Shown one piece after another: positions 6,636 through 39,630 of a DNA stretch of 39,630 bases. The notes under the pieces are model-generated. The model searched no databases and was not told the origin of the DNA. It saw only the letters and a program-made list of their open reading frames with translations. This DNA comes from Candidatus Cloacimonadota bacterium. GTDB lineage: Bacteria > Cloacimonadota > Cloacimonadia > Cloacimonadales > TCS61. A program made the translations under genes and the position numbers. The stretch's first letter is position 1, and the number at the start of each line of letters is the position of its first letter. Where the stretch lies: NCBI GenBank assembly GCA_034660955.1, contig JAYEKK010000120.1, positions 1-39,630 on the forward strand. Direction: 5' to 3'.

Positions 6636-6653
6636 TGCGTCCTCCATTCTTAA

Positions 6654-10800: not shown

Positions 10801-11039
10801 ATAAAACTTACATCATAAAGTCTTTCTGTTGTATTAGTTTCTTGGTATTCCCACGTTGTTCCACCATCTTGTGTATGCATTACAAGACCTTCGCTTAAAA
10901 CTGCCCATCCATCATCTCCAATAAATTGAATTTCGGAAATATACCCTCCTGCTACAAAGTCCCAATCTGCAAATAATGATAGTGAACAAAAGGTGAGCAG
11001 AATAAAACTTAAGATAAAAATTAATTTTTTCTTTTTCAT
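7818..11039 (-). CDS. Large T9SS-sorted secreted protein with about 13 BNR/Asp-box (Ycf48/sortilin-like) repeats forming tandem beta-propellers, plus Fn3-like modules
   Basis: Signal peptide MKKKKLIFILSFILLTFCSLSLFA with an AGGAG RBS. The motif x-T-x-D-G-G-x-T-W recurs about 13 times (HTQDGGTTW, HTTDGGNSW, HTSDGGINW and others). The C-terminus NYPNPFNPTTTISF...GIYFYKM...RKMILLK is a T9SS sorting domain. Confidence 0.85.
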   Translation of the reverse strand: MKKKKLIFILSFILLTFCSLSLFADWDFVAGGYISEIQFIGDDGWAVLSEGLVMHTQDGGTTWEYQETNTTERLYDVSFIDNLEGWVAGNDGLIFHTTDGGNSWTSQNSTTTTNLQSIIFVDALNGWAAGSYGTIVHTSDGGINWTAQTSGISSKIYSIFFIDDLNGWAVSASDYIIHTSDGGTTWTTQTNPTTDSMKDIIFYDVNEGWAAGQHSILHTVDGGTIWVEQTNPGDENLYGIGMGDNNHLWAVGIDGEILATTDGGATWVEQSFALDWLLGAHFVNDLTGWIVGSGGVVYKTTDGGLNWIAQRAGTSSGLRRTVFVDENNVWGCGTKGFIIHSDDGGLTWEGKDSGFDDWIWDITFAPDLLHGWAAGDDQAGQTPILATVDGGETWTQQLTGIYEDVIGIEAVSNTEVFAAAKDGYILHTTDGGAIWNQQTSGVTVDFKSIEMVSEDIGWVVGVDGTILYTDNGGTTWMQQTSGTTETIYDISFVDSQNGWAAGNSGTMLNTSDGGATWTQQPVGTTDGFNRVSAISLDEVWAIADEGFHTTDGGLTWNSVPIPCSIGLWGLDFANSNLGIAMGNGGIIARYTSEELSPPENVQVDPATGALTWDAPGGVIFSDNFDSYAAGDFLCTQSTDWFTWGNSPGGSDDCYVVDIQSNSPSNSIEITGASDIIHPFGDLITGSYSVNFMMYIEPTYGGYFNLLHEFTEWRRVRTEWALEAYFGSTGSGTLSAGGTNAATFTHPVGSWFEVETLIDLDTDLAEFYVDGVFIHTWQWSLQSTGTPGLCQLGAIDIFAAAPAGDTPLFYIDDFTHTIADVTTRDLSGYNIYLDDMNTPFATVGIDVFEYIYSDLIPAQEYLAGVSAVYDDPGESVIIEVPFTYNPIFNPPQNLAVECIEDYAHFTWDVPAEEMRDLTGYNVYLDQVEVVSNIAELEYDFYGLVNGEYYDAGVRAIYDDPGESELVEINFLYTGTGAENILPLITELTGNYPNPFNPTTTISFSTKEAGHVSISIYNMRGQLVNTLVNEELERDFHVIIWDGKDNNNKAVSSGIYFYKMNSKNYSSTRKMILLK

Positions 11040-11691
11040 TTCTTTCTCCTTGTTTTAAGAATAATATTTGTTCAACACAATAATTCGAATTAAAAATCAT
11101 AAATCCGAATTTTTTCTTAGCGAAATTGATATTAATTTTATTTTGGAAATTTGGTTTTATACAAAGTTGTTTCTTCGTTCTTCTCCTATACGCCTTTCAG
11201 ATAAAATTCTTCTTTCAAATTTAACAGGGATATCTTGCTTTCTTCTCTCAATTGTTCTCCTATTGATAATATTACGTTTAATCATTTAATTCTCCTTTTT
11301 TAATTTTATAAGAAGATTTTTTCTTGATCTTCTCTCATAATATTTTTTAAGTTGCTGAATAATAGGATTTAAAAATGAATTGTTATTTCTTGTATTATTC
11401 ACTAAAATACTCATTTGAACAAGATTAAATAATTGATATTTTAAGTGAAGATTAATACTTTTGACAGTTTCAACAGTTCCATATTTTTTTAATTTGTTCA
11501 TAGTACACCACAAAATTGATCTTTTTAATATAAATTTAGAATTTCATTTCTACTTAGAAAATTTCTTTTAAAAATCAATCACATAATACATGAAACAAAT
11601 AAATATATTTGCTTTTACAAAGTCAATATTTTAACAATATTTTTTGCAAATATAATTTAAACGTTAAATAAATATATCTATTTTCATCGAG

Positions 11692-11726
11692 AAAAAAAAT
11701 GCCCTGACGATAAAATCATCAAGGCA
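11692..11726 (-). terminator. Rho-independent terminator downstream of the S8 protease gene
   Basis: On the minus-strand RNA: UGCCUUGAUGA-UUUUA-UCGUCAGGGCA (11-bp stem including 2 G-U pairs), followed by a run of 8 U. Confidence 0.7.
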
Positions 11727-11787
11727 AATTCTACTATTTCATATACAAGAGAAGACTTCTCTTACAATGATGTTAGGGTAAAACCTA

Positions 11788-14700
11788 TTATTTCAGTAAG
11801 ATCATTTTCCTTGCAGAGGAATAGTTTTTAGAATTCATCTTATAGAAGTAAATTCCACTTGAAACAGCTTTGTTGTTATTATCTCTACCATTCCATGATG
11901 TAAAGTGAACACCTTCCTGCAAGCTCTCTGAGACCAGAGTTCTTACAAGCTGCCCGCGCGTGTTGTAAATTTTCAAGCTCACAAAACCATCTTCTTTGAT
12001 ACTGAAACTGATATTAGTATCAGGATTGAATGGATTAGGATAGTTCTTGCTCAGCTCATTTATGAATACTGGAACTACTTCCGGTTCAATTCCCGATGTA
12101 GGATCAAAAGCATTACCTGTTCTTTGGGGATTACGCTTGAAGTTTGCCCAACGAATTTGGCCAACAGGATTTTTGTAATCGATCAGATAGTATGAAGTTT
12201 GGTTTGCCACCAATATTTCAATATCATCATCATCATCAGCTAATCCTAAGGCAGGAGCTACTTTAATAGGATTTCCTAAATTTATTGGGAACATGAAGGT
12301 TTCATTGCCTGTGATATCTATTGAATGCAGGTTTCCCGCATCATCTCCAAACACAATATCAGGAGTTCCATTTGCGTCCATATCAACAATAACAGGAGTA
12401 GATTCAACTATTTCACCGATGCTTACAGGGAAATTTGGAAGATTATTCCCAGCTTGGTCTAAAAGATAAATATTACCTGGTTGATCTATAAAACAAATAT
12501 CGCTAGTTCCATTATTATCGAAGTCTGTAGCTACCAATCCTGTACGAATTTGAGCACCTACATCCAAATCCCAGATAAGAGAACCGTCATTATCTATCAC
12601 ATAAACAACACCTAGTGTTGTGGCGATCATTACTTCGGGATCATTATCGGTATCTGCGTTAAATATACTAGGACCCTGAACTGAACCTAAACCGATATCG
12701 TAAGGCCAACCGGAAAGATTGGAACCCGTATTGGAAGAGATCGCATTTAGAGAACCTGTAACTGTTGTTACTATAACTTCAAGATTTCCATCACCATTCA
12801 AATCAGCCACAGCAGCAGAAGACATTACTGGAGCACTCAGAGAAGCCGGGAAATTAGCAAAGGAGGTGCCATCTGAGTTTATTATGTGAACCGCTCCGGT
12901 TGGGTATGTACAAACAATAACTTCCATTGTGCCATTATCATCAACGTCGGCAATTATCGGATTACTCTTTAAAATTCCACCCGCCACATAGTCAAAAAGA
13001 ATATTCCCACCATTATCATAAGCGATCACATGACCGGCATCATTACCAATAACAATATCTTCAATGTTGTCACCATCTACAAAACCAACTGCAACAGCAA
13101 CTGCGATATTAGAACCGGTATCAATAGGGAATGGGGCAACAGGTGTTCCATCTGCATTCATAACATGGATCATTCCTTCATAATCACCGAAGATTATTTC
13201 TCTTGAACCATCATCCTCAAGGTCTACAATAGCTCCGCTCGAGGTAGAAGCACTTCCTAAAACCAAAGGCCAACCAGCTTGAGCCAGGGTTAGTTCAACC
13301 ATTAGTTCAAGTTCTGCCACGTAAGGCCAGGCAGCACTAGGATTAGCCGAAATGCTCATAGTAAAAGGAATGGAATAATCAGAGAGTCCGGGAGGTGTTT
13401 CAAAACTAAAAGGATCACCTGAATTCCAGCCGTTAGATCCTGAAGAAATATCTGCATAAATCATTTCATCATTTAGTATCGTTACTTCAGCAACTTCGCA
13501 ACTGAGAGTAGCTGTAATATCTTCTGCATCAAGCCAGAATCCGTCATTTTCTATATTGATAGAAAGGTTTATAACTTCACCAGGATTTGGCACGCCATCA
13601 CCATCACCAGTTTGTTCGGTTATTGCAATTTCTGCAATAGAGAGTTTTGGGATAAGATCGTACATTGCTCCTTTAAAAGAATTAACACGTCCGCTTCCTA
13701 ACATGCCAACGTACACTGGATCATTAACATCTTCTATGTCATCGCATGTATATTCCAATCTGGTTTTTAACTCTGCAGGTGTTAAATCTGGATGTAAAGA
13801 TTTTATAAGACCAGCAACACCGGCTGCAACTGGAGAAGCCATCGAAGTTCCATTAAAATATGCATAACCATTTCCACCTATTATTGTAGAGTATATATTT
13901 GATCCCGGTGCAGAAACATCAACCGTGGTTCCATAATTTGAAAAATTGGATTTCACATCACTATCCGGACCGGTAGAAGCAACACAAACTGCATTTGTAG
14001 CACTACCAGGATAATGTGGCACACCTCCGATATTCTGATTATCATTACCGGCAGCAGCAACAACAATAGAACCATGACTCATGGCATAATTTACGGCATT
14101 ATTAGCGGTAGTTCCACTACCACCACCGCCCCAGCTACAATTAATGACATCAGCACCTGAATCTGCACAATAATAAATTCCAGAATAACCATTTTGGATA
14201 TAAGGAGAGTATGTAAAATCGGGTGAATGGCGGGATGAGATTAACTTAACATTCATCATAGGACCAGTTACACCAAGGTTATTGTCTCCTACTGCACCAG
14301 CACATCCGGCTACATGAGTTCCATGGTCATTATCGACATATCCCTGATAAGATTGGTTATTATTATTATAGAAGTTCCAACCAATGCAATCGTCTACCTT
14401 TCCATTTCCATCATCATCTAAACCATTACCACCGGAAACAGTTCCATTTGTCCAGTTTATGGTCATGGAATTTCCGCCGGACGTAGAATTAAGCTCAGGT
14501 TCATTGATCCAGATATTATCCTGCAGGTCAGGATGGTTCCATTTGATACCGGAATCTACAATACCGATAATGACTTCATCACTTCCCGTTGTATAATCCC
14601 AGGCGGGTTCGCTTTGTATAAACTGATGATACCACTGCGAACTATAAGCAGTATCATTAGGGACATAATCAGTTTTATATATCGGATCAAACTCAGCATA

Positions 14701-15078
14701 GATAATATTTGGATCGGCAGAGAGTGCTTTCAAAGCCTCATCAATAGAATCATTATTTTTCAAAGTAATATAATAAATACATCTTGGGTATAATCCGTTA
14801 TCGTTCCAATCAAGATCTTTAAGGGAAGTAATAGCTTGCTTCAGATCAACAAAAAGAAAATCTTCTGCAATTCTATCGAAACTTGCAATTCCTGTTTCAA
14901 CAATACCATCACTAACTTCATGTTCCAAAATTCCTTCTCTGTTACCAATAGCATCCCATTCAAACCCAACAATTATTCTGTTAGGTTGAAAATTTCCCTC
15001 ATTAAATGGAATTACCACATCGGCAAAAAGCGATGTTAATAATAACACAATTACAATAAATAAAAATAACTTTTTCAT
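11788..15078 (-). CDS. Subtilisin-like (S8) serine protease with FG-GAP/VCBS-type repeats and T9SS C-terminal sorting domain
   Basis: Signal peptide with an AAGGAG RBS. Catalytic triad contexts are present: IGIVDSGI (Asp), DHGTHVAG (His), GTSMASPVAAG (Ser). Calcium-binding-like DxDxDG repeats recur (ADVDDNGTMEVIV, ADLNGDGNLEVIV, VDMDANGTPDIVFGDD). The C-terminus NYPNPFNPDTNISF...RKMILLK is a T9SS sorting domain. Confidence 0.9.
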   Translation of the reverse strand: MKKLFLFIVIVLLLTSLFADVVIPFNEGNFQPNRIIVGFEWDAIGNREGILEHEVSDGIVETGIASFDRIAEDFLFVDLKQAITSLKDLDWNDNGLYPRCIYYITLKNNDSIDEALKALSADPNIIYAEFDPIYKTDYVPNDTAYSSQWYHQFIQSEPAWDYTTGSDEVIIGIVDSGIKWNHPDLQDNIWINEPELNSTSGGNSMTINWTNGTVSGGNGLDDDGNGKVDDCIGWNFYNNNNQSYQGYVDNDHGTHVAGCAGAVGDNNLGVTGPMMNVKLISSRHSPDFTYSPYIQNGYSGIYYCADSGADVINCSWGGGGSGTTANNAVNYAMSHGSIVVAAAGNDNQNIGGVPHYPGSATNAVCVASTGPDSDVKSNFSNYGTTVDVSAPGSNIYSTIIGGNGYAYFNGTSMASPVAAGVAGLIKSLHPDLTPAELKTRLEYTCDDIEDVNDPVYVGMLGSGRVNSFKGAMYDLIPKLSIAEIAITEQTGDGDGVPNPGEVINLSINIENDGFWLDAEDITATLSCEVAEVTILNDEMIYADISSGSNGWNSGDPFSFETPPGLSDYSIPFTMSISANPSAAWPYVAELELMVELTLAQAGWPLVLGSASTSSGAIVDLEDDGSREIIFGDYEGMIHVMNADGTPVAPFPIDTGSNIAVAVAVGFVDGDNIEDIVIGNDAGHVIAYDNGGNILFDYVAGGILKSNPIIADVDDNGTMEVIVCTYPTGAVHIINSDGTSFANFPASLSAPVMSSAAVADLNGDGNLEVIVTTVTGSLNAISSNTGSNLSGWPYDIGLGSVQGPSIFNADTDNDPEVMIATTLGVVYVIDNDGSLIWDLDVGAQIRTGLVATDFDNNGTSDICFIDQPGNIYLLDQAGNNLPNFPVSIGEIVESTPVIVDMDANGTPDIVFGDDAGNLHSIDITGNETFMFPINLGNPIKVAPALGLADDDDDIEILVANQTSYYLIDYKNPVGQIRWANFKRNPQRTGNAFDPTSGIEPEVVPVFINELSKNYPNPFNPDTNISFSIKEDGFVSLKIYNTRGQLVRTLVSESLQEGVHFTSWNGRDNNNKAVSSGIYFYKMNSKNYSSARKMILLK

Positions 15079-15349
15079 AACTACTCCTTATAATTAATTT
15101 TTTTATTTTTGAAATAAGTGAAAACAATATATCACCTATATTTCTAACAAACTGCATATAAAGGAATTATATGCTATTTATTTTGATTTTCAATAAAACA
15201 GAAACTCAATATATTTGTCAAGAAAAGCAAGAGTTCTATTTAAATAAATATCCACAAATATATATGCAAAAATTGTTCCGCAATATACAGAACTATATCA
15301 ATAACAGTTTTGACTTTACAAATATCCATAATTATTAGATTGATCTCTT

Positions 15350-16192
15350 ATGAAAAAGGTAGTAGAATGTAATTATGAATTATTAGATTGCGGTGAATTT
15401 GAGAAATTAGAACAAATCGGAGAAGTAATTATTTGCCGACCTGCATTACAGGCTACATGGAAGCGAAAACTTGATGATAATATCTGGCAACACTATCATG
15501 CTAAATTTGATCAAGCAAAAAATATATGGACTAATGTTCCAGATGGAAAATTGCCATATTTTGAATGTAACAATTTAACTCTTGAGCTAAGGTTATCTCC
15601 CAATAGACAGATAGGTATCTTCCCTGAGCAATTAATAAATTGGCAGTGGCTGAGAGAAGTGATCTCTCAAGCAAACCGACCTCTGAATATCTTAAATGGA
15701 TTTGCTTATACGGGTGCATCTACCCTTATTTCATCTACAAAAGGGACTACTCTTACCCACATTGATGCTTCTTCAAGCAGTGTGAATTGGGCAAAACAGA
15801 ACTGCCGATTATCTAATTTAGAAAATAATAATATCCGTTGGATCGTTGATGATATAATTACTTTTCTTTCTCGTGAGGTTAAACGTGGTTCTGTTTATGA
15901 TGGGATAATCTTGGATCCACCTGCTTTTGGTCATGGGAAAAAAGGGGCTATTTGGAAGATAAGAAGAGATTTGCCAAAATTAATGAAATTAGTTGATAAA
16001 CTTTTAAGTAACAATCCGGAATTTATAATTCTATCATGTCACGATAAAAATTATAAACAGCGTGAATTACAAGATGAGCTTACAAAATTACAAAGTTTAA
16101 AAAACGGAAAAATTGAAACAATAGACTTAAAAATTGAATCGGAAACCGGTAATGACCTAACTGCAGGGAAATGTGCCAGATGGAAAAAATAA
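15350..16192 (+). CDS. Class I SAM-dependent methyltransferase, COG1092 (RlmI-like catalytic domain without PUA)
   Basis: LNGFAYTGASTL, HIDASSSSVNWAKQN and ILDPPAFGHGKKG align with the RlmI-type fold. The substrate cannot be assigned. Confidence 0.7.
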   Translation: MKKVVECNYELLDCGEFEKLEQIGEVIICRPALQATWKRKLDDNIWQHYHAKFDQAKNIWTNVPDGKLPYFECNNLTLELRLSPNRQIGIFPEQLINWQWLREVISQANRPLNILNGFAYTGASTLISSTKGTTLTHIDASSSSVNWAKQNCRLSNLENNNIRWIVDDIITFLSREVKRGSVYDGIILDPPAFGHGKKGAIWKIRRDLPKLMKLVDKLLSNNPEFIILSCHDKNYKQRELQDELTKLQSLKNGKIETIDLKIESETGNDLTAGKCARWKK

Positions 16193-16216
16193 AACGCCCC
16201 AACAAAAGGGCGTTTT
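16191..16216. terminator. Bidirectional rho-independent terminator between convergent genes
   Basis: AAAACGCCC-CAACAAAA-GGGCGTTTT has a 9-bp stem flanked by A-run and T-run, so either strand ends in a U-tract. Confidence 0.75.
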
Positions 16217-16240
16217 ATTTATACTGTAATGTAAAACTAT

Positions 16241-18430
16241 TTATTTGATCAACAACATCTTTTTAGAAACTTCAGAAATTTCTGTTTTCATCTTCACAAA
16301 GTACATTCCACTAGAAGTAAAATTACCATTGTTATCTTTTCCATTCCAAACAAAGTTTGTGTTTTGCACAATTTCATTATTCACAAGTGTTTTAACAAGC
16401 TGTCCTTTTATATTAAATATCTCAACTGATACGGGCTGCTGAATATCATTCTCATTTATTGAAAGAGCAATATTAGTAGTTGGATTAAATGGATTTGGAT
16501 AAACAGAGATAGAGTTAACAGCAACTACATTAACTGTGTTGTCTTCAGAATCTGTTGGTTCCAATTCGTAAGGAGTTGGACCCCCATAAGCACCCATATC
16601 GTTTCTTGATCCATCAAGATCGTTGTACATTGCATCAGGATTACCGGCATTTATGCAAGGTGAACCAGCCTGCAGCCACCAAGATGCAGAAAGTCCATTA
16701 TAGTCTGTTCCATCTCCTGCTGTTGGTGCCACGAAGAGTGGATCTTCATCAATATTACCCTCACCTGCAAATCCACCCGTTACACAACTATATGTAATTT
16801 CAGGAGTACTTAGATAATATATCACACCATTATCTATAATGATTGAGTTAGTAATAACCGGAACTGAATTCAACAAGAACATCAGATATGAGGTTGAATT
16901 AGTCGATTCATTATTGGCAATGGTATTATTAGTAATTATTGCATTAGAATTATTCGATAAGTTGAATGCACCCCATTGTCCCGTATTATTCACGATCACA
17001 TTATTTGTGATCTCAGGAGAAGATGTATTACAGATTATGCCACCCGTATTACCTGAATTTGTATTATTGGCAATAATACTTTGTGAGATCAAAACATTGT
17101 CAGACCCGATAATCTCTATTGCAGAGCTGTTATTATCAAATATCCTACAGCCGATAATATCTACTTTAGAGTCGCCCTCAATCTTGATCGCAGAAACAGC
17201 AGTATTAGAAATCTCACAGTTAGAAAGAAGATTGTCTTCTTGAGTATTAAAAAATCTTATACCATTCCAAGAAGTATCTGAAGTGAAAACAATTGGTTCA
17301 CCTCTTGCCGAAGAAGCATCGGCCAATAGAAGCCCATTTATTGTAAATTGAACATCACTATCAAACTGTAATACAACATCTTCATTGATAACTAATTCTT
17401 CACCTTCTGCAATTTCAATATCACCGGATATTATATAAGGACTATAGTTAGTTACCCAATTACCAGAAAGAGCACCAGAGACATTTGAACCATCTGTTAC
17501 GGTTATATAATCTTCAATAGTAATTTCAGCGAATTCTCCATCAACCTCAATTCTAAGAGTAACATCAAATACTCCAGGCTCTGTATAGAAATGGAAAGGA
17601 TTTTCTTCTGTGCTGTCAAAAATTCCATCACCATCAAAGTCCCATTCCCAGCTTTCGATTCCTGTTTGTGGAAACGATGTACTTGTAAATTGAACACCAA
17701 GATGAGCAGGACCTTCTGTTATGTTAGTACTAAACATAGGAAGTACCCCGGTAAACATAGTTGAAATCCCTTGTAGGACTACATGATTAGTCCCAAGTGT
17801 TTGAACTAATACAATTCCTTTCAAATTTATTAAATCCCAACTCGGATCCATTGGAAAAGAAAATTCATAACTACCTGTTTGACCAACAGAAGTTAAATCA
17901 AAAACTGTAGATTGATCATAGGCAACAGCAGTACTGAACCAAACTTCATCAAAATTGTAGGTTAGTATATAAATAACCTTATTATTTGTTGTTGTGATAT
18001 TGTTTGTTACTTCAATATCCGCAGTAAGGACTAGCTCATTCTGTCCTGAAACCATCATAGAGAGCTCCATAGATAGTGGACTATCATTATTTACAATTGA
18101 GTTATATTGCGGTTGATAATTCATGGGGTTGTTGGGGTAACCTCCAACAATAGGTATTGTTCCTCCAAATTGGGCATGAGGGACACCGCCAACATTGTAC
18201 AAACTGCCCCGTGTACTATAACCAGGGCTTGGATTTGGACCTCCGCTTTCCCATAATATAGGTATTAAGTAATCATTACTATTATTCAAATTAAGCAGCC
18301 CTTCCAGGGCTGATGGACAATATTGTCAGCCACTATAAGAGGCAAAAACTTCTCCAACTACCTCAATTTGAGTAGCATACACGAACAAAACGGACATTAG
18401 CATAACTATTAATAATAAAATCTTTTTCAT
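16241..18430 (-). CDS. T9SS-sorted secreted protein: N-terminal thioredoxin-like domain with in-frame TGA at codon 35 (candidate selenocysteine, motif U-Q-Y-C-P), PKD domain, parallel beta-helix repeats
   Basis: An AGGAGG RBS lies 7 nt before ATG 18430, followed by the signal peptide MKKILLLIVMLMSVLFVYA. A single TGA occurs at 18326-18328 and the frame is otherwise open to 16241. A PKD signature is present (WEWDFDGDGIFDSTEENPFHFYTEPGVFDVTLRI), along with PbH1-like repeats (ITNNVIVNN, ITNNTIANN, ITNSIIIDN). The C-terminus VYPNPFNPTTNIAL...GMYFVKM...KKMLLIK is a T9SS sorting domain. Confidence 0.65.
18296..18312 (-). promoter_or_regulatory. SECIS-like hairpin downstream of the in-frame UGA
   Basis: On the mRNA strand the sequence is CAGCCCU-GGA-AGGGCUG (7-bp perfect stem, GGA loop). 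It begins 13 nt after the UGA at 18326-18328. Confidence 0.55.
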
Positions 18431-31352: not shown

Positions 31353-31967
31353 ATGAATAAAGAAATTTTTAGAAAATATTTAGAGAAACATTTACCCCAA
31401 AAAGCTGATGAATTGATGATCTCATTTGAAAGATTTCTAGAAGCTTTATGGGAGGAGAATTCTAAAGTTAATCTTATTTCGCGAAAAACACCTAAAGAAG
31501 AATACTGGACTCGGCACTTTTTAGATTCTCTTCTTCCAATAGAAATGACAGACCTTTCCAACAAAAAAATACTGGATTTTGGAACAGGTGGCGGATTGCC
31601 CGGAATACCCTTGAATCTTGTTTACCCAAGCTCAGAAATATATCTGCTGGATTCTACACATAAAAAGATCAATGCAGTAAAAGATATAATTAAAATACTT
31701 GACTTGCCATCGTGTTTCACGATTGTTTCACGGTTAGAAGATTTAGAGAGTAGTTGGTTTGGATTTTTTGATATTATAGTGTGCAGGTCAGTGAAAATAT
31801 TGCCGAAATATAAAAGCATTTTATTTAAGTTGATAAAAAATAATGGGAAGATAATTTTATATAAAAGCAAACTGATGGATGATATTGGGCAATTTAAAAA
31901 GTATCTGATCCATGATGTTTCACATCCTGCAATTGGTGAGCGAAAAATAATTGTAATTGAAATGTAG
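31353..31967 (+). CDS. rsmG: 16S rRNA (guanine527-N7)-methyltransferase RsmG (GidB)
   Basis: Motifs: NLISRKTPKEEYWTRHFLDSL and ILDFGTGGGLPGIPL. It occupies the classic position upstream of parA-parB. Confidence 0.85.
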   Translation: MNKEIFRKYLEKHLPQKADELMISFERFLEALWEENSKVNLISRKTPKEEYWTRHFLDSLLPIEMTDLSNKKILDFGTGGGLPGIPLNLVYPSSEIYLLDSTHKKINAVKDIIKILDLPSCFTIVSRLEDLESSWFGFFDIIVCRSVKILPKYKSILFKLIKNNGKIILYKSKLMDDIGQFKKYLIHDVSHPAIGERKIIVIEM

Positions 31968-32020
31968 CTATAAATAAATAGGCAGAGAATACGATCTCGG
32001 CTGAATATTCTGGAGAAAAC

Positions 32021-32776
32021 ATGGGAAAAATTATCGCAATTGTAAATCAGAAAGGCGGCGTTGGAAAAACAACTTCTGCGGTCAATATTGCCTCTGCCCT
32101 TGCAATTTATGAGAAGAAGACACTGTTAATAGATTTTGATCCTCAAGGTAATTCATCCAGCGGAATAGGTGTGGATGGAAATAGTCCTAATATTTACGAA
32201 GCACTTATAGGTGAAGTTAAAATGAGCGAAGTAATAAAGAAATCTCCGATATTAGACAAACTGGATATTGTTCCATCCAATGTAGATCTGAGCGGTGCGG
32301 AAATTGAATTGGTAAAAGAATATTCGCGTGAATTCAAACTGAAAGAAGCATTAGAACCTATCAAAAATGATTATGATTATATTATTGTCGACTGCCCCCC
32401 GTCGTTAGGTTTGCTTACCGTAAATACACTTACTGCCTGTACAGACGTACTTATTCCAATTCAGTGTGAATATTATGCACTTGAGGGCGTGAGTCAGCTT
32501 CTTAATACAATTAGATTAATCAAAAAAGGGCTTAATCCAGATTTGAATATTATGGGAATTCTGCTCACAATGTATGATAGAAGACTCAACCTTTCTCTTC
32601 AGGTAGCAAAGGAAGTGAGACGCTATTTTCAGGAACAGGCATTCAGTACTATAATTCATCGAAGTGTGAAATTGAGTGAAGCACCCAGTTTTGGGAAGTC
32701 AATATTCCATTACGATATTAAATCGTCAGGTGCAAAAAGCTATTTGCAATTAGCAAAGGAAGTGATGGCAAGATGA
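32021..32776 (+). CDS. parA: Chromosome-partitioning ATPase ParA/Soj
   Basis: Deviant Walker A is NQKGGVGKTT. IIVDCPPSLG and the PIQCEYYALEG motifs are present. Confidence 0.92.
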   Translation: MGKIIAIVNQKGGVGKTTSAVNIASALAIYEKKTLLIDFDPQGNSSSGIGVDGNSPNIYEALIGEVKMSEVIKKSPILDKLDIVPSNVDLSGAEIELVKEYSREFKLKEALEPIKNDYDYIIVDCPPSLGLLTVNTLTACTDVLIPIQCEYYALEGVSQLLNTIRLIKKGLNPDLNIMGILLTMYDRRLNLSLQVAKEVRRYFQEQAFSTIIHRSVKLSEAPSFGKSIFHYDIKSSGAKSYLQLAKEVMAR

Positions 32777-33624
32777 CAAAATTAGGAAAAGGATTAGAAG
32801 CACTAATAAGTTCAGTTCCGGAATCTACAGATGTTTCAACCGGAATAACAACGATAAAAACGGATAAAATAAAACCCAATAGATTCCAACCAAGAAAGTT
32901 ATTTAATTCTGAGAAATTACAGGAATTGGCGAATTCACTGAAAGAGAACGGGATAATTCAGCCCATCATTGTAACCACAAAAGATGAAGGCGAGTATGAG
33001 CTTATTGCCGGAGAGCGCAGATTAGAAGCTTCCAAATTGGCGGGATTCAGTGAAATACCTGTTATTATTCGCAGTGTATCACCCAAAGAACAATTACAAT
33101 TTGCGATAATTGAGAATGTGCAGAGAGAGGATCTTACAGCTATTGAAGAAGCAAATGCATATCAGCAATTAAATGAAGAATTCAAACTTACTCACGCACA
33201 AATATCTGAAATCGTAGGTAAGGATAGAGCAACAATAACCAATTTTATCAGGCTGCTGAAGTTAAGCGAGAATGTGCAACAGATGATACTGAACGATCAA
33301 ATATCATCTGGTCATGCCAGGGCAATATTACAAGTAAATGAAGAACTTCGTGATGAATTTTCACGGTTTATCTTAAAGAATAAACTTTCCGTACGAAAAA
33401 CAGAAGAAGAAGCTAAGCACATAAAAGAGACCGGATCAGTTTCCCATTCCAAAAAGAAAAAAGAAGTTATTAAAATTCCTGAATTAAGGGAATTTGAAAA
33501 AAAACTAAAACAGAAATTCAAATCTAAGGTTAAAATATCTGACAATAACTATAAAGGTAAAGTCAGTTTTTATTATTCCTCACAAGATGAATTGAATAAA
33601 TTATTGGAAAAACTGGGAAAATGA
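32773..33624 (+). CDS. parB: Chromosome-partitioning protein ParB/Spo0J
   Basis: ParB box: GIIQPIIV...YELIAGERRLEASKLAG. HTH: THAQISEIVGKDRATITNFIRLLKL. ATGA overlap with parA. Confidence 0.92.
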   Translation: MTKLGKGLEALISSVPESTDVSTGITTIKTDKIKPNRFQPRKLFNSEKLQELANSLKENGIIQPIIVTTKDEGEYELIAGERRLEASKLAGFSEIPVIIRSVSPKEQLQFAIIENVQREDLTAIEEANAYQQLNEEFKLTHAQISEIVGKDRATITNFIRLLKLSENVQQMILNDQISSGHARAILQVNEELRDEFSRFILKNKLSVRKTEEEAKHIKETGSVSHSKKKKEVIKIPELREFEKKLKQKFKSKVKISDNNYKGKVSFYYSSQDELNKLLEKLGK

Positions 33625-34286
33625 AAATTATTATTGCCATATTATTGATTATCGTTGTACTTATTACAGCTTGGTTCTATGCAGAAAACATCAAATTGAA
33701 AAAGCAGGTAGCAGAGCAACAAGGAGAATTAGATATTTCCGCAAAATACATAAAACGATTAAATAGAAAAATAGCAGAAGATCGCAATCTTGTTTCATCT
33801 TCCAAAACAAATGAAGAGAAGATCCGGGCATTGATGGATACTTACATGAAAGAGCAAAACAAAGATGTGTATGTAGATTCAGGGAAGGCTATTCAATATG
33901 ATGAACAACGTAGGTTTCTGCCTGACATTATTCCCGTAAAAGGTGATTTTGCTATAAGTCAAAGATTTTCTGAAAAGCATCCGGCATGGGATTTTGCGGC
34001 CGCCAAAGGCACAGAAGTTGTAGCTGTTGCAGCGGGTGAAATACTTTCAGTATATCACGATGAACATTACGGAAATGTAATAATAATAGATCATTTCAAT
34101 GAATATGCTACGCTTTATGCACATCTTGCAACTATTTTTTTTGAAAGCAAAAATACTGTAGAAAAGGGAGAGACTATTGCACTGGTTGGAAATACCGGAA
34201 ATAGCTCTGCTCCGCATCTGCATTATGAAATAATGTTCGATGGAAAAAATGTCGATCCAAAAGAATATATTGATGTAATAAAGTAG
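33621..34286 (+). CDS. Membrane-anchored M23-family (LytM-like) peptidase with coiled-coil linker
   Basis: N-terminal TM helix. M23 motifs: HPAWDFAAAKGTEV, YGNVIIIDH, GNTGNSSAPHLHYE. ATGA overlap with parB. Confidence 0.85.
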   Translation: MKIIIAILLIIVVLITAWFYAENIKLKKQVAEQQGELDISAKYIKRLNRKIAEDRNLVSSSKTNEEKIRALMDTYMKEQNKDVYVDSGKAIQYDEQRRFLPDIIPVKGDFAISQRFSEKHPAWDFAAAKGTEVVAVAAGEILSVYHDEHYGNVIIIDHFNEYATLYAHLATIFFESKNTVEKGETIALVGNTGNSSAPHLHYEIMFDGKNVDPKEYIDVIK

Positions 34287-34299
34287 GAGGAAATATAAT

Positions 34300-34698
34300 A
34301 TGAACAAGAATAGAAAAGTTGAGCTTTCAACTATAATTGGAAAAGGGAGTAAAATAAAGGGCACACTTTACGTTCAGGGTGGCGTGCGAATAGATGGTGA
34401 AGTAGAAGGTACAATTGAATCTGACGGATTCGTAACTATTGGATCTTCCGGTGTTGCCAGGGCTAATATTAAAGCAGATGAATGTCTAATCTCCGGCAAA
34501 GTAGTTGGAAATGTAACCTGTAAAGATGCTATTGAATTGGATAGAAGTGCCAGAATGAATGGTGATATTGTTGCTAAAATCCTAATGATACATACCGGAG
34601 CAGTATTCAACGGTAAAAGTTCAATGACTTCAAATTCCAAAACAATAAAAAATCCAATAATAAAAGAAAATGTGGAAAAAAAAGAACCAACTGAATAA
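34300..34698 (+). CDS. Bactofilin (CcmA-like polymer-forming cytoskeletal protein)
   Basis: The bactofilin beta-helix repeat pattern is present: IKGTLYVQGGVRIDGEVEGTIESDGFVTIGSSGVARANIKADECLISGKVVGNVTC. AGGAGG RBS. Confidence 0.85.
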   Translation: MNKNRKVELSTIIGKGSKIKGTLYVQGGVRIDGEVEGTIESDGFVTIGSSGVARANIKADECLISGKVVGNVTCKDAIELDRSARMNGDIVAKILMIHTGAVFNGKSSMTSNSKTIKNPIIKENVEKKEPTE

Positions 34699-34903
34699 TG
34701 AATTATTGAAATATATAAGTTTGATAACACAGTTAGGTCTTACCATAATAAGTTCAATACTTATTTTTTTAGTTGGAGCAATATACATGGAGAAGAAATT
34801 CCAAACAGAAGGTGTATTGATTTTGGTTGGTGTATTAATTGGTGTTGCTGCTGGAGTTTTTGCAGCATACAAATTATTAAAAAAAACGTTAGAAAAAGAA
34901 TGA
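34670..34903 (+). CDS. AtpZ/AtpI-family small membrane protein preceding the ATP synthase genes
   Basis: 77 aa with two TM helices and the GVLIGVAAGVFAAYKLL tail typical of the family. The start overlaps the bactofilin 3' end by 29 nt, so the exact start is uncertain. Confidence 0.6.
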   Translation: MWKKKNQLNNELLKYISLITQLGLTIISSILIFLVGAIYMEKKFQTEGVLILVGVLIGVAAGVFAAYKLLKKTLEKE

Positions 34904-35292
34904 ACAAAAATATGGAAGATAATAATAAATATATCAAAAAAATATTGCTGATTATTCTCTTGACAAACATACCTGCGTTTTTGACTTTACCGTGGTTCTT
35001 TAATCAGTCTATAAGTTGGATTATGGGTACAATAGGCAGTGCTGGAAATTTTTTTTGGTTGGCTCATAACCTAAAGAAAAGTATTGGACTTTTACCAACG
35101 AAATCACGGGTGAGTGCTGCAAAAGGCTCTCTAACAAGATATGCTGCATTAACAATATTTGCACTTGCAGTCTTCTTTCTGGTAAAGCCGAATATTATAA
35201 TTTTCGGTGCCGGCTTGCTTTCTGCACAGATCGTGATATATATAGTTGAAATTGTAAGAAATTTGAAAAACAATAAGTATTTTAGAGGGTAG
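34900..35292 (+). CDS. atpI: ATP synthase protein I (AtpI-like)
   Basis: 130-aa protein with about 4 TM helices, directly upstream of the a subunit. ATGA overlap with the preceding gene. Confidence 0.55.
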   Translation: MNKNMEDNNKYIKKILLIILLTNIPAFLTLPWFFNQSISWIMGTIGSAGNFFWLAHNLKKSIGLLPTKSRVSAAKGSLTRYAALTIFALAVFFLVKPNIIIFGAGLLSAQIVIYIVEIVRNLKNNKYFRG

Positions 35293-35293
35293 A

Positions 35294-36205
35294 ATGGCTA
35301 AAAAGAAAAGCCCGATCTTAAAGATTTTTATTTTATTTATTCTCATTGAAACAGCATTAGTGTTTGTTTCAAATGGATTTAATAAAAAACTTCAAGTAGG
35401 ATTTGATGACGGAAAAATTATCTTTAGAAACATTCAAAGCCATTACGACCTGCAAGAAAAAATTACCGAAGAATTCCAAATTGATGAACACTATCGTCAA
35501 ACTGGCGAAACACCAAAAATCTACGGTAGTAATCAAACATATGAATTCTTTAAAAACATATTTGGTAAAGCTTCCGCTATAGGAACATTCCAGCTTTTGC
35601 GTATGCTGCTTATTGTAGATATTGTGCTTCTATTCATTGCTCTCCTGATAAAAAAGAAATTATTAAAAAGACCATCGCAACCACAAATAATATTTGAAAT
35701 GATTTATTCTACATTTGAACAATTTGTAATAGAAACACTTGGCAAAGAAAGAGTTAACTTCACTCCATACATTGTAACGCTTTTTTTATTCATTTGGGTT
35801 TGCAACCTGGTTGGAATGATCCCCATCCCCGGGTTTATGGAACCTACCAGAAACCTAAATGTTCCACTTGGTCTTGGAGTTTTTGCAGTTGCAATAGTTC
35901 ATATAACTGCTTTTAAAGTAAAGGGTGTTTGGGGTCATCTTAAAAATTATGTAAATCCTGTAAAAAACCCTCTTTTCCTCTTGGATATCATTGGAGAACT
36001 TTCTAAAGTTGTATCAATTTCTTTCCGATTATTTGGTAATATTTTAGGCGGAGCTATCATTATTTTGGTTGTTTCATCGTTGGTTAGTTACGTGGTTTTC
36101 CCGGTTGGATTAAATCTTTTCTTTAGTTTGTTCGTAGGAACAATACAAGCTTTTGTTTTCACAATGCTGGCACTCACCTATATTGGCGTTGAGATCTCGG
36201 AGTAA
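35294..36205 (+). CDS. atpB: F-type ATP synthase F0 subunit a
   Basis: SISFRLFGNILGG contains the essential Arg. The C-terminal helices QAFVFTMLALTYI are present. Confidence 0.9.
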   Translation: MAKKKSPILKIFILFILIETALVFVSNGFNKKLQVGFDDGKIIFRNIQSHYDLQEKITEEFQIDEHYRQTGETPKIYGSNQTYEFFKNIFGKASAIGTFQLLRMLLIVDIVLLFIALLIKKKLLKRPSQPQIIFEMIYSTFEQFVIETLGKERVNFTPYIVTLFLFIWVCNLVGMIPIPGFMEPTRNLNVPLGLGVFAVAIVHITAFKVKGVWGHLKNYVNPVKNPLFLLDIIGELSKVVSISFRLFGNILGGAIIILVVSSLVSYVVFPVGLNLFFSLFVGTIQAFVFTMLALTYIGVEISE

Positions 36206-36207
36206 TA

Positions 36208-36960
36208 ATGGAATTATCTGTAGAATATATTAGAATTGCAGCATACCTCGGAGCAGGAATAAGTGTTGGTCTAGGTGCCATAACAACCGGAATTGGGTCA
36301 GGAATAATTGCCGGAGAAGGTGCTTATGGTGTTATGAAACAACCACAAGCCAATGATCAATTATTTAGAACTATGCTTATTGGTCAAGCTGCGGCACAAA
36401 CGGCCGGAATATTTGCGTTGGTTATTTCTATGCTGTTAATATATGGAGGTTTTGATATTGTTGATGGCGGCTGGTTCAGGGCAGCAGCTTTACTTTCTGC
36501 TGGATTGGCTATGGGAATTGGAGCTTTGGGTCCATCCCTCGGTGCCGGATATTCCGGTGGAGAAGCATGTAAATCTGTTGCTAGAATGCCAAAGCATGGT
36601 AATGCAATAATGGGAAATATGCTTATTGGTCAGGCATTATCACAAACTTCTGCAATATTTGCTCTGGTTGTATCACTGCTTCTTTTGTATTCTGTTCCAA
36701 ATCAGCCGGCAGGTCTTTCTGTTGGTAAAATTTTATTAAAATCAGTTTCATTGATTGGTGCAGGAATGGCAATTGGGCTCGGAACAATAGGGCCCGGGGC
36801 GGGTATTGGATATGTTGCAGGTAAGGCAAATGATATGATGGGAAGATTTCCCAAAGAAAGATCAATGATAATGAGAACGATGTTTTTAGGAGCAGCAGTA
36901 TCAGAATCAACAGCGATATATTCGTTAGTGATTGCTTTTCTGCTGATCTTTGCAGTATAA
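36208..36960 (+). CDS. Triplicated F0 c-subunit fusion (three c hairpins, predicted 6 TM); only the third hairpin keeps the ion-binding Glu
   Basis: Three collinear c-subunit repeats (about aa 1-82, 83-168, 169-250). Each has a Gly-rich helix 1, a polar loop (KQP / RMP / RFP) and a helix 2. The helix-2 carboxylate position is Q64 (CAA 36397-36399), Q146 (CAA 36643-36645) and E233 (GAA 36904-36906). GGAG RBS. There are no internal stops. Confidence 0.85.
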   Translation: MELSVEYIRIAAYLGAGISVGLGAITTGIGSGIIAGEGAYGVMKQPQANDQLFRTMLIGQAAAQTAGIFALVISMLLIYGGFDIVDGGWFRAAALLSAGLAMGIGALGPSLGAGYSGGEACKSVARMPKHGNAIMGNMLIGQALSQTSAIFALVVSLLLLYSVPNQPAGLSVGKILLKSVSLIGAGMAIGLGTIGPGAGIGYVAGKANDMMGRFPKERSMIMRTMFLGAAVSESTAIYSLVIAFLLIFAV

Positions 36961-36969
36961 ATAATTTAG

Positions 36970-37242
<273 letters not shown>

Positions 37243-37320: not shown

Positions 37321-37803
37321 ATGATTAGTATAGATTATTCTCTCATTATTGTAATTCTTAATTTCGTACTTTTACTGATCGTTCTGAATAAGATTCTGTA
37401 TAAACCGATCAAGAAATTCTTGGGTGAGAGGCAACAAAAAATAGCTTCTGACTTGGATGAAGCAAAGGCATCGCAAACGCAAGCTGAGAAACTTGTAGAA
37501 CAAAAAAACGATGAGTTAAAGCAATCTGCAGAAGAGATCAGGAAGATGAAGAATGCCGCTACCAGTGATGCTGAAGGTAAAGCCAAAGACATTATGAAGA
37601 ATGCTAAAGAACAGGAAAAGCGGATATTACAAGATACGGAAGAACAACTCGAAACCGAAAAAGTAAAGGTTATGGAAATAATTGAAGATGAATTGACAGA
37701 AATGGTTGCCGAACTTTCTTCTAAATTCCTATCGGAAAAATTCGATGAGAAAAAAGATAAAGAACTGATAAAGAAAATCATCTCTGAGCGGGGAAGTAAG
37801 TGA
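37321..37803 (+). CDS. atpF: F-type ATP synthase F0 subunit b
   Basis: One N-terminal TM helix followed by a long, charged coiled coil (KASQTQAEKLVEQKNDELKQSAEEIRK...). GGAGA RBS. Operon position fits. Confidence 0.88.
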   Translation: MISIDYSLIIVILNFVLLLIVLNKILYKPIKKFLGERQQKIASDLDEAKASQTQAEKLVEQKNDELKQSAEEIRKMKNAATSDAEGKAKDIMKNAKEQEKRILQDTEEQLETEKVKVMEIIEDELTEMVAELSSKFLSEKFDEKKDKELIKKIISERGSK

Positions 37804-38345
37804 AAAATATACTCGTTGCTCAACGCTATTCTCAAGCTATTATTAGTGGACTCGATGATAAAGATATCAATTCAATATTAGCTGATGTTGAGATAATGGG
37901 CAGTTCAATAAAAACTGAACCGGAACTTGTGGATGCGGTTAATTCTTATTTATTTCCAGCTAATAAACGTTTGGGAATAGCATTGAGTATGACAAAGAAA
38001 TTAAAGAATACTAAACTGTGGGAAAACTTGTTCGGTATTCTTATCAAAAAGCATAGATTCAATATTGTTACAGAAATTCTGCAAGACCTGGAGAATAAAA
38101 TATTAGATAAGAAAGATCAGGTTAAAGTTGGACTGACCATCGCTCATGATTTATCTGAAGATGTACTTAATTCCATATCTGAAAAATTAAAAGATATTCT
38201 TGAAAAAGATGTAATTTTAGATGTAAAGATAGACCCTGAAATATTAGGAGGTTTTGTAGCAACTACAGATTCTCTGTTAATTGACGGATCAATAAAAAAT
38301 AATTTAGTAAAGCTGCTAAAAGTTAAGTCAAAAAAAAAGAAATGA
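37800..38345 (+). CDS. atpH: F-type ATP synthase F1 subunit delta (OSCP)
   Basis: GTG start overlaps the atpF stop (GTGA). 181 aa. The C-terminal [22 protein letters not shown] segment is typical of delta/OSCP. Confidence 0.8.
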
Positions 38346-38352
38346 GGTCAGT

Positions 38353-39630
38353 ATGAAAATACAACCAGATGAAATAAGTTCGATCCTAAGAGATAAGATC
38401 AAAGGATTAAAATTTGATATTGATATTTCCGAAACCGGAAAAGTTGTTCAGGTGGGAGATGGAATTGCCCGAATTTATGGAATGGACAATGTGATGGCTG
38501 GTGAGATGATAGAATTCCCTGGTGACGTTATGGGAATGGCATTAAACCTGGAAGAAGACAATGTGGGATGTATTATTTTTGGTGAGACACGAAAGATCAA
38601 AGAAGGTGATATAGCAAAAAGAACCAAGAAGATCTTGCAGGTTCCTGTAGGTGAAGCGATGCTGGGTCGTGTTGTGAATGCACTTGGAGAACCGTTGGAC
38701 GGGAAAGGTCAGATCAAAGCTGAAGCTTATATGCCGGTTGAAAGAAAAGCTCTCGGTGTTATACAAAGACAACCGGTTAAAGAACCTCTCCAAACAGGTC
38801 TCAAAGCAATCGATTCGATGATCCCGATTGGTAGAGGACAGCGTGAATTAATCATTGGTGACCGCCAAACAGGTAAAACAGCTATTGCTATCGATACAAT
38901 TTTAAACCAGAAAGATACCGATGTGATTTGTATCTATGTTGCTATCGGGCAAAAAAAATCATCAGTGGCAAAGATCGTGAACACACTTGAAGCAAATGGA
39001 TCTATGGAGTATACGATCATAGTTATTGCCTCTGCTGCTGAATCTGCTTCTTTGCAATATCTCTCACCATACACAGGATGTACAATGGGAGAATATTTCC
39101 GCGATAAAGGACAACATGCACTTATCATTTATGATGATCTCTCTAAACATGCTGTATCTTACAGAGAGCTTTCATTACTTCTTAGAAGACCTCCAGGACG
39201 TGAAGCTTATCCCGGAGATGTTTTCTATCTTCATTCACGTCTTTTGGAAAGAGCCTCCAAGCTTAATGATGAACTTGGTGGCGGTTCACTTACTGCTCTT
39301 CCTATTATTGAAACACAGGCAGATGACTTAACAGCATATATTCCAACAAATGTTATTTCAATTACAGATGGTCAGATATTCCTTAGTAACCGCTTGTTCT
39401 ATTCAGGTATTCGTCCTGCTATTAATGCCGGACTTTCGGTTTCACGTGTGGGAGGAAGCGCGCAACGAAAAGCGATGAAGAGCGTTACCGGACAATTGCG
39501 TGTAACATTAGCTCAATACACAGAGCTTGAAGCATTTGCAAAATTTGGATCAGACCTTGATAAGGCAACTCAGGCACAGCTTACACGAGGTAAACGATTA
39601 ATAGAAATTCTAAAACAATCACAATATTCA
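38353..39630 (+). CDS. atpA: F-type ATP synthase F1 subunit alpha (5' part; 426 codons, runs off the window end; absent from the ORF track)
   Basis: Own translation from ATG 38353, with a GAGG RBS: [18 protein letters not shown]... Walker A is [61 protein letters not shown] and [15 protein letters not shown] are also present. Confidence 0.93.

Follow-up and report, generated by a model that had tools for sequence, protein, structure and literature searches.

A triple-hairpin c subunit encoded beside a Na+-type single-hairpin c in an F-type ATP synthase operon of Cloacimonadota

We analysed a stretch of 39,630 nucleotides from a Candidatus Cloacimonadota bacterium (contig JAYEKK010000120.1), referred to below as the window, in which an F-type ATP synthase operon includes an unusual gene for the membrane rotor subunit c. 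The open reading frame (ORF) at 36208..36960 on the forward strand runs from ATG to TAA and encodes a protein of 250 residues, named c3x here. It is followed by the gene for a single-hairpin c subunit. The two genes and the parts of c3x are as follows.

36208..36960 (+): c3x, triple-hairpin c subunit with six transmembrane helices (6-TM), 250 residues; three PF00137 matches, predicted local distance difference test score (pLDDT) 94.4, ratio of nonsynonymous to synonymous substitution rates (dN/dS) about 0.05
36208..36453 (+): hairpin 1, residues 1-82; Gln64, Ser31 at the Gln/Glu32 position, loop K44-Q45-P46 (alignment and hidden Markov model (HMM) mapping)
36454..36711 (+): hairpin 2, residues 83-168; Gln146, Ala113, loop R126-M127-P128, Thr147-Ser148-x-x-Phe151 (alignment and HMM mapping)
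36712..36957 (+): hairpin 3, residues 169-250; Glu233, Ile200 at the Gln/Glu32 position, loop R213-F214-P215, Ser234-Thr235-x-x-Tyr238 (alignment)
36991..37242 (+): c1x, single-hairpin c of 83 residues; Glu33, Val64, Glu66, Ser67, Thr68, Tyr71 (PF00137, E 5.5e-18; signature EVSESTY)

The profile PF00137 (ATP-synt_C) recognised three separate segments of c3x (E 6.8e-43; score 145 bits, cutoff 24), and several NCBIfam 'F0F1 ATP synthase subunit C' models each matched it three times. An AlphaFold2 model built from an alignment of 41 orthologues (mean pLDDT 94.4, predicted template modelling score (pTM) 0.88) contains six long helices paired as three hairpins, with predicted turns at K44-Q45-P46, R126-M127-P128 and R213-F214-P215. 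Among these 41 orthologues P46, R126, P128, P215 and the Gly positions are invariant. The cytoplasmic R/K-x-P loop and the helix-1 Gly motifs of the Gly-rich inner helix are retained by all three hairpins, as expected of ring members that contact gamma and epsilon. An antisense ORF of 173 residues (36623-37144, reverse strand) overlaps the 3' part of the c3x gene and half of the single c gene; nothing supports its status as a gene, and it is most likely spurious.

For alignment with MAFFT, c3x was cut at residues 1-82, 83-168 and 169-250, and the hairpins were combined with the adjacent 83-residue c and the c subunits of Ilyobacter tartaricus, Fusobacterium nucleatum, Acetobacterium woodii (the hairpins of c1, and c2) and Escherichia coli. 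Identity to the adjacent c is 54% for hairpin 3, and between the three hairpins it is 31-39%. Gln64 (codon 36397-36399), Gln146 (36643-36645) and Glu233 (36904-36906) share the column of the ion-binding Glu65, and HMM-based mapping agrees. A carboxylate in the middle of helix 2 is found in hairpin 3 only, as Glu233.

In multi-hairpin subunits a Na+ site comprises the hairpin's own Gln or Glu at position 32 and Glu65, together with the motif [S/T][S/T/Q]xxY of the previous hairpin (ProAD supplement); ProAD classes a site without any one of these ligands as H+-specific. No hairpin of c3x has the full set. The residues at position 32 are Ser31, Ala113 and Ile200, accompanied by Gln64, Gln146 and Glu233, respectively. 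By the ProAD rule hairpins 1 and 2 are therefore predicted to have no Na+ site. Glu233 is probably a carboxylate in an incomplete site, not a Na+ site, because Ile200 replaces Gln/Glu32 and the preceding hairpin, which donates Thr147-Ser148-x-x-Phe151, offers Phe151 and not Tyr70. Ile200 aligns with Ile28 of the H+-coupled E. coli enzyme. A Q32I mutant of Propionigenium modestum reportedly lost Na+ coupling and kept Li+/H+ coupling in the hands of Kaim et al. in 1997. The adjacent 83-residue c carries the full Na+ motif (Glu33, Val64, Ser65, Glu66, Ser67, Thr68, Tyr71), and this two-carboxylate motif has been shown in F. nucleatum by crystallography and biochemistry (PMC3692424).

A preliminary description of this DNA had proposed three tandem hairpins with six helices, the third about half identical to the neighbouring c and retaining its Glu, and Gln at the carboxylate position of the other two. 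The profile matches, the model and the alignment bear this out, with Gln64 and Gln146 in the same column as Glu65 of the I. tartaricus, F. nucleatum and A. woodii subunits. Of the 'single ion site' that it also proposed, the single carboxylate stands, but a complete Na+ site does not, owing to Ile200 and Phe151.

A search of 5.8 billion proteins with c3x returned full-length orthologues of about 250 residues, 57-98% identical; those that carry names are from metagenome-assembled genomes (MAGs) of Candidatus Cloacimonadota. In a scan of one genome per species in GTDB r232, 189 stretches encoded a relative of c3x, and the best 80 were examined. Nearly all of these 80 were from Cloacimonadota; the exceptions were two Marinamargulisbacteria, one bin labelled Armatimonadota and a few entries labelled 'uncultured bacterium'. 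The closest were 98% and 97% identical to c3x, and Ca. Tenebribacter davisii was 91% identical. A complete fused ORF of 235-259 residues was present in 75 species-level loci, and a single-hairpin c followed it in 73 of them with a median gap of 30 nucleotides; counts out of 75 and 73 below refer to these two sets. The single c signature E32/V63/S64/E65/S66/T67/Y70 was identical in 69/73, and every ligand was kept in at least 71/73. Median dN/dS, estimated by the Nei-Gojobori method over 58 unsaturated pairs, was 0.052 for the whole c3x gene (hairpin 1, 0.042; hairpin 2, 0.048; hairpin 3, 0.076) and 0.020 for the single c. Such low values indicate that the carboxylate-free hairpins are under strong constraint. 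Together with 75 intact, independently assembled ORFs they also rule out that a stop or frameshift was overlooked or that the gene is a pseudogene in decay. Thus c3x is a real, old and conserved gene, found throughout the phylum Cloacimonadota. The preliminary description had argued from the divergence of the hairpins that the fusion was old and no assembly duplicate, and had suggested a survey of related genomes for the gene and its synteny; the identities of 31-39%, the uninterrupted frame in 75 genomes and the single c next to it in 73 settle these points in its favour.

The residues at the Glu65 position of hairpins 1, 2 and 3 varied between species as follows.

E-Q-E: 33 species
Q-Q-E (the pattern in the window): 27 species
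Q-Q-Q: 4 species
E-Q-Q: 4 species
G-Q-E: 3 species
G-Q-Q: 3 species
E-E-E: 1 species

Hairpin 2 has Gln in 74/75 species. Hairpin 1 has a carboxylate in 38/75, and in 33 of these 38 it has Glu32 too, giving a full two-carboxylate site. In hairpin 3 the carboxylate position is Glu in 64/75 and Gln in 11/75, and position 32 is Ile in 72/75; the residues that it donates are Ser66 in 74/75, Thr67 in 73/75 and Tyr70 in 74/75. Seven of the 75 species (Q-Q-Q and G-Q-Q) have no carboxylate at all in a gene that is otherwise intact and conserved. Two proteins 85-86% identical to the c3x of the window (loci L005 and L024) are Q-Q-Q. As close relatives differ in pattern, carboxylates have been lost repeatedly. 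Four complete Cloacimonadota chromosomes of about 1.5 Mb (L074-L077) encode a carboxylate-free c3x (Q/G-Q-Q, at about 6001-6753 in each locus) and retain the Na+-motif single c beside it.

The order of genes in the window is atpZ-like, atpI, a, c3x, c, b and delta, assigned by Pfam, followed by an open frame. The remaining features of the operon are listed here.

34670..34903 (+): atpZ-like small membrane protein (ATPase_gene1), first gene of the operon (PF09527, E 3.8e-11)
34900..35292 (+): atpI, putative c-ring assembly factor (PF03899, 25.5 bits against a cutoff of 25.1)
35294..36205 (+): F-type subunit a, 303 residues (PF00119, E 4.5e-45, residues 104-297)
36199..36202 (+): GGAG Shine-Dalgarno motif of c3x, within the 3' end of the a gene (sequence reading)
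36982..36986 (+): GGAGG Shine-Dalgarno motif of the single-hairpin c, nearer to consensus than that of c3x (sequence reading)
37321..37803 (+): subunit b (PF00430, E 1.3e-20)
37800..38345 (+): subunit delta (OSCP; PF00213, E 2.2e-29)
38353..39630 (+): subunit alpha, N-terminal part, probable, leaving the window (open frame without stop; position after delta)

The start of atpI overlaps the stop of the atpZ-like gene. Subunit a aligns with that of Bacillus PS3, including the conserved Arg in 'SFRLFGN'. Its N-terminal extension of about 95 residues (window 35294-35580) has no Pfam match; the length of subunit a is conserved in the Cloacimonadota loci (median 303 residues, against 224 in the Desulfobacterales operons described below). 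The Shine-Dalgarno motif of c3x lies inside the a gene, an arrangement of translational coupling. GGAG is the usual motif upstream of c3x across the 75 loci, and the mean best match to AGGAGG is 4.9/6 before the single c against 4.2/6 before c3x. The ORF from 38353 is probably subunit alpha, judged by its position after delta and by the preliminary description. The operon thus has a, b, delta and probably alpha of the F type, and no V/A-type subunits. Genes for gamma, beta and epsilon would lie past the end of the window; the related full operon at L090, described below, has them. The Pfam matches agree with the earlier assignment of an F-type operon with delta, in which a canonical single c adjoins c3x.

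Two other class assignments were considered and rejected. As a V-type K subunit, c3x scored at best 64.7 bits against a cutoff of 211 (NF004913), and the operon is F-type. As an N-ATPase c, it scored 125.6 against a cutoff of 130.85 (TIGR03322), a score summed over three hairpins. N-ATPases are defined by the order beta-epsilon-X-X-a-c-b-alpha-gamma, with delta absent or fused to b (PMC11738941); the window has a separate delta and the order atpZ-I-a-c-c-b-delta-alpha.

The atp operon is directly preceded, on its own strand (window 31353-34698), by rsmG (gidB), parA, parB and genes for an M23 peptidase and a bactofilin, a set typical of the region near a replication origin. Elsewhere in the window three large secreted proteins are encoded on the reverse strand (7818-18289), each with a C-terminal sorting domain of the type IX secretion system (Por_Secre_tail): a protein with BNR/YCF48-like repeats, a subtilase with beta-propeller and FG-GAP repeats, and a beta-helix/PKD protein. 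This trio fits an organism of the FCB group.

The protein search with c3x also returned proteins of 304-406 residues, about 40% identical, with four or five hairpins in the patterns E-Q-Q-E, E-Q-Q-Q-E and E-Q-Q-Q-Q. The members of their clusters were Desulfobacterales MAGs and the cultured Desulfatitalea alkaliphila (WP_246911839.1). A five-hairpin protein used as the seed of a second search yielded over 2,000 relatives, and the 117 new sequences listed comprised 84 with four hairpins (E-Q-Q-Q), 15 with five, and 18 with six (434-490 residues, mostly E-Q-Q-Q-Q-Q). A phmmer search against 1.84 billion cluster representatives gave 71 clusters at E<=1e-30, including forms with two, three, four and five hairpins and many patterns. 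In databases, proteins of the c3x family are labelled plainly 'ATP synthase F0 subunit C'. Every Desulfobacterales contig examined had the arrangement atpZ-atpI-a-c(nx)-c(1x)-b-b', headed, as in the window, by an atpZ-like gene. The single c of these operons (82-84 residues) bears the motif GEG...SESTGIY, the same as the Cloacimonadota partner. The patterns at these loci were E-Q-Q-Q, E-Q-Q-E, E-Q-Q-Q-Q, E-Q-Q-Q-E and E-Q-Q-Q-Q-Q, and the genes, each with a single Na+-motif c next to it, are located as follows.

L081 10001-11497: Desulfobacterales gene of the four- to six-hairpin c series (E-Q-Q-Q to E-Q-Q-Q-Q-Q)
L082 8001-9249: same series
L084 8001-9573: same series
L086 8001-9485: same series
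L087 5001-6735: same series

A neighbour-joining tree of 77 hairpins over about 80 columns, which is rough because the sequences are short, placed the first hairpins of three-, four- and five-hairpin proteins from three phyla in one group. The second hairpins of three-hairpin proteins clustered, and the last hairpins fell close to the clade of single c subunits. In the Desulfobacterales proteins the additional middle hairpins formed a cluster of their own, away from the second hairpins of three-hairpin proteins, a position that would fit later internal duplications. The hairpins of A. woodii c1 fell beside A. woodii c2, I. tartaricus and F. nucleatum. Judged by these comparisons, the three-hairpin proteins of Cloacimonadota and the four- to six-hairpin proteins of Desulfobacterales are one family, independent of the A. 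woodii duplication.

Other multi-hairpin proteins were seen in the same searches. At L090 (4461-12630) a c subunit of 434 residues (P0150) has five hairpins with Glu in all of them, in a complete F-type operon ordered atpI-a-c5x-c1x-b-b'-delta-alpha-gamma-beta, so F-type multi-hairpin fusions occur without loss of sites too. At L088 (1387-3079) and L089 (2216-3907) a four-hairpin c of about 315-321 residues (E-Q-E-D/E, 27-34% identical to c3x, from a large protein family) lies directly 3' of a 242-residue ATP-synt_A gene; no further ATP synthase genes were found nearby on these two short contigs, and the pair may be an orphan a+c4x module. Among the more distant representatives, P0189 (968 residues), P0199 (524), P0249 (1139) and P0291 (631) have 7, 8, 12 and 14 hairpins, all with Glu, and are probably archaeal A-type subunits of the Methanopyrus kandleri kind.

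We propose that c3x probably co-assembles with the neighbouring Na+-type single c in one heteromeric F-type c-ring. Each copy of c3x would occupy three ring positions and contribute no complete Na+ site, and Ser234-Thr235-x-x-Tyr238 of hairpin 3 would supply the ligands that the following hairpin needs from its neighbour for a Na+ site. Where hairpin 1 is siteless (the Q-Q-E, Q-Q-Q and G-Q-x lineages), the hairpin so served must be a single c. The donor ligands of hairpin 3 are near-invariant whereas its own carboxylate and a position-32 ligand are not, which argues for a place side by side with the single c. Q-Q-Q and G-Q-Q subunits by themselves have no carboxylate, so that a ring made of such c3x only would have no coupling site. 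The shared operon and the tight spacing of the two genes are consistent with co-assembly, and the weaker Shine-Dalgarno motif of c3x (GGAG against GGAGG) is consistent with its being the minor component.

A ring of this kind would have an ion-blind sector of two to three hairpins, and the number of Na+ ions per revolution, and hence per ATP, would be lower than in a ring of the same size made of single hairpins. The principle of the A. woodii F/V-hybrid rotor would be extended by an independently evolved subunit. By way of illustration only, one c3x in a ring of 11 hairpins would reduce the load from 11 to 8-9 ions per turn, or from 3.7 to about 2.7-3.0 ions per ATP. With a lower Na+/ATP ratio, ATP hydrolysis could raise a steeper Na+ gradient, for example driving Rnf backwards in a fermentative or syntrophic cell, and ATP synthesis would require a larger sodium-motive force. 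Published accounts present Cloacimonadota as fermenters with no ion pumps besides Rnf and the ATP synthase (PMC8542988, PMC12590816). ATP-driven Na+ export backing reverse Rnf is plausible; ATP synthesis at a reduced ratio, as has been argued for A. woodii and Clostridium aceticum (PMC7911925), would be equally plausible.

Several considerations weigh against the proposal. We infer ring entry, copy number, ion/ATP ratio and physiological direction from sequence. Shine-Dalgarno strength is a weak proxy for expression, and the trend seen here is weak. A fused c10 ring of Bacillus PS3 no longer supports ATP synthesis once it carries a single E56Q substitution (PMC8809890), so two or three consecutive blank hairpins might stall a synthase. 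Thr65 of hairpin 1 is conserved though it faces the dead site of hairpin 2; conserved position-66 ligands alone are thus no proof of a working neighbour site. The main mechanical difficulty is the passage of two to five blank hairpins past subunit a under load.

One variant accepts co-assembly and makes Glu233 a working H+ (or Li+/H+) site, so that in each turn every c3x would add one H+ to a load made up mostly of Na+. Ile at position 32, as in E. coli (Ile28), and the ProAD practice of counting sites that miss any Na+ ligand as H+-specific speak for it. However, Glu233 is replaced by Gln in 11/75 species that keep the gene, so it is not essential, and we consider this variant unlikely.

Alternatively, the operon might supply two rotors, with a homo-oligomer of c3x (for example four copies, giving 12 hairpins and 4 carboxylates) replacing the ring of single c conditionally, so that a low-ratio 'pump' and a high-ratio 'synthase' would arise from one operon. 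The carboxylates of hairpin 3 (64/75) and hairpin 1 (38/75) are as such an arrangement would have them, and fused c subunits reportedly give working rings in E. coli, but the intact Q-Q-Q and G-Q-Q forms (7/75) would be incapable alone. The two genes share an operon, 30 nucleotides separate them, and nothing points to their being regulated separately. In the lineage of the window a homo-oligomer would put the S-T-x-x-Y of hairpin 3 against the dead site of hairpin 1, leaving its conservation unexplained, and Glu233 would work without a position-32 ligand. Conditional replacement of the ring therefore appears distinctly improbable.

It is more doubtful still that c3x is a c-derived accessory membrane protein that does not rotate, such as a ring-size template or a stator-side or regulatory element. 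Tolerance of carboxylate loss down to zero, and the assembly factors atpI and atpZ in the same operon, would suit such a role. Yet each hairpin keeps ring features (the Gly-rich inner helix and the R/K-x-P loop), hairpin 3 keeps Na+ donor residues, the predicted fold superposes on ring subunits and best on A. woodii c1, and that protein, the sole characterised analogue, sits in the ring. There is a negligible chance that c3x arose by faulty assembly or annotation, or that it is a pseudogene in decay in which three tandem c genes are read through, given an intact ORF of 235-259 residues in 75 independent species-level assemblies, dN/dS of about 0.05, a confident AlphaFold model and hairpin identities of 31-39%, which speak against a recent repeat collapse.

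Co-assembly of c3x with the single c may be an instance of something wider. Tentatively, and with a little less than even confidence, we suggest that F-type ATP synthases in several phyla have rings of Na+-binding single c together with a mostly or entirely ion-blind c of three to six hairpins. The carriers would be Cloacimonadota, Marinamargulisbacteria and Desulfobacterales, with patterns from Q-Q-E and Q-Q-Q up to E-Q-Q-Q-Q-Q, and a contiguous sector of two to five hairpins would transport no ion on passing subunit a.

Chemiosmosis has its central gear in the ion/ATP ratio, which is usually held to be set by the number of identical c subunits alone. A. woodii showed that nature can delete one site by means of a duplicated subunit. 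If the wider reading is true, phyla of energy-limited anaerobes routinely drop two to five consecutive sites by means of fused subunits of three to six hairpins, and the number of sites keeps shifting, as carboxylates are lost repeatedly between close relatives. Anaerobes would thereby gain lineage-specific, evolvable ion/ATP gear ratios, in contradiction to the PS3 result, where the loss of one carboxylate disables the Fo motor of a bacterium. A contiguous ion-blind sector would be a natural test for models of Fo torque generation. It also bears on whether an 'F-type Na+ ATP synthase' is read as a synthase or a pump in reconstructions of Cloacimonadota and sulfate reducers. The cultured five-hairpin carrier, Desulfatitalea alkaliphila, makes experiments feasible.

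The full-text searches, which covered neither Matthies et al. 2014 nor the 2015 review by Brandt and Müller, brought up no F-type operon described as encoding a c subunit of three or more hairpins. Such genes may have been listed earlier, for example in that review (Biol Chem 396:1031), which a 2026 paper cites for 'multiple atpE copies' in Rnf-dependent anaerobes. Genomic papers on Cloacimonadota mention just a 'Na+-dependent / complete F-type ATP synthase' (PMC8542988, PMC12590816). ProAD (2025) allows in general terms for variants of c/K that have two hairpins or more, and its F-type c logos show one or two. The preliminary description knew of no account of such a subunit; none turned up here either, but the gene is no one-off, being phylum-wide and having relatives with four to six hairpins. 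The hybrid-rotor principle is already known from A. woodii, and what appears to be new is the family with three to six hairpins, which is well supported at the level of sequence.

We compared c3x and its partner with known c-rings. F. nucleatum c11 (PDB 3ZK1) has the same Glu32/Val63/Glu65/Ser66/Thr67/Tyr70 set as the adjacent 83-residue c, to which it is 58% identical; the solved ring is homomeric, and no multi-hairpin partner has been reported (PMC3692424).

V/A-type proteolipids resemble c3x in having multiplied hairpins with some sites lost. Enterococcus hirae NtpK has two hairpins and one site, the Methanocaldococcus jannaschii subunit three hairpins and two sites, and that of M. kandleri 13 hairpins. 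Over four helices the c3x model matched NtpK and eukaryotic V-type c with TM-scores of 0.77-0.84, normalised to the target. Their operons, however, encode subunits A, B, C, D, E, F and I, whereas the window encodes F-type a, b, delta and probably alpha. V/A rings are homo-oligomeric or, in eukaryotes, built of two-hairpin paralogues, and we know of no V/A multi-hairpin proteolipid that has a single-hairpin c as its partner.

Genetic fusions of two or three c subunits reportedly make working rings in E. coli (Jones and Fillingame 1998). In engineered fusions (E. coli c2/c3 and Bacillus PS3 c2-c10) linked hairpins enter an F-type ring (PMC8809890), as proposed for c3x. The engineered PS3 c10 fails with one E56Q, whereas the natural c3x carries two to three blank hairpins kept by selection.

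A. woodii c1 (4bem_J) was the best PDB sequence match to c3x (E 8.5e-27) and also the best structural match, followed by V-type c and K subunits; no PDB structure spanning six c helices was found, and the best match covers four. In A. woodii and C. aceticum, as in the window, a multi-hairpin c gene lies between a and a single c in an F-type operon with atpI. A. woodii c1 shares with c3x the replacement of a carboxylate by Gln and a partner c with a Na+ motif. Thus the gene arrangement of an F/V hybrid, a multi-hairpin c with lost carboxylates and a single Na+-motif c in one F-type operon, is present in the window. The A. woodii ring contains c1 and c2/c3 at 1:9 and makes ATP (PMC9171764; PDB 4BEM). 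The two proteins differ in hairpin number, two in c1 against three in c3x, and in site layout. Hairpin 1 of c1 has a full Q..ET Na+ site and hairpin 2 has the Gln (PMC7911925), and our alignment likewise places the Gln in the second hairpin, not in the first as the preliminary description had it; c3x has Gln in hairpins 1 and 2 and an incomplete site in the last. The partner c has Glu32 in the lineage of the window and Gln32 in A. woodii. An orthologous relationship to A. woodii c1 (atpE1) was ruled out by the identity matrix and the rough neighbour-joining tree. The c1 hairpins show 70-71% identity to A. woodii c2 and 34-40% to the window hairpins, and their clustering with their own c2 indicates a recent and separate duplication; the window hairpins are 31-54% identical to each other and to the adjacent c, and cluster by position with the three- to five-hairpin proteins of Cloacimonadota, Marinamargulisbacteria and Desulfobacterales. 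The F/V-hybrid rotor of A. woodii and C. aceticum is therefore the closest known system, the same in principle and different in origin, number of hairpins and layout of sites.

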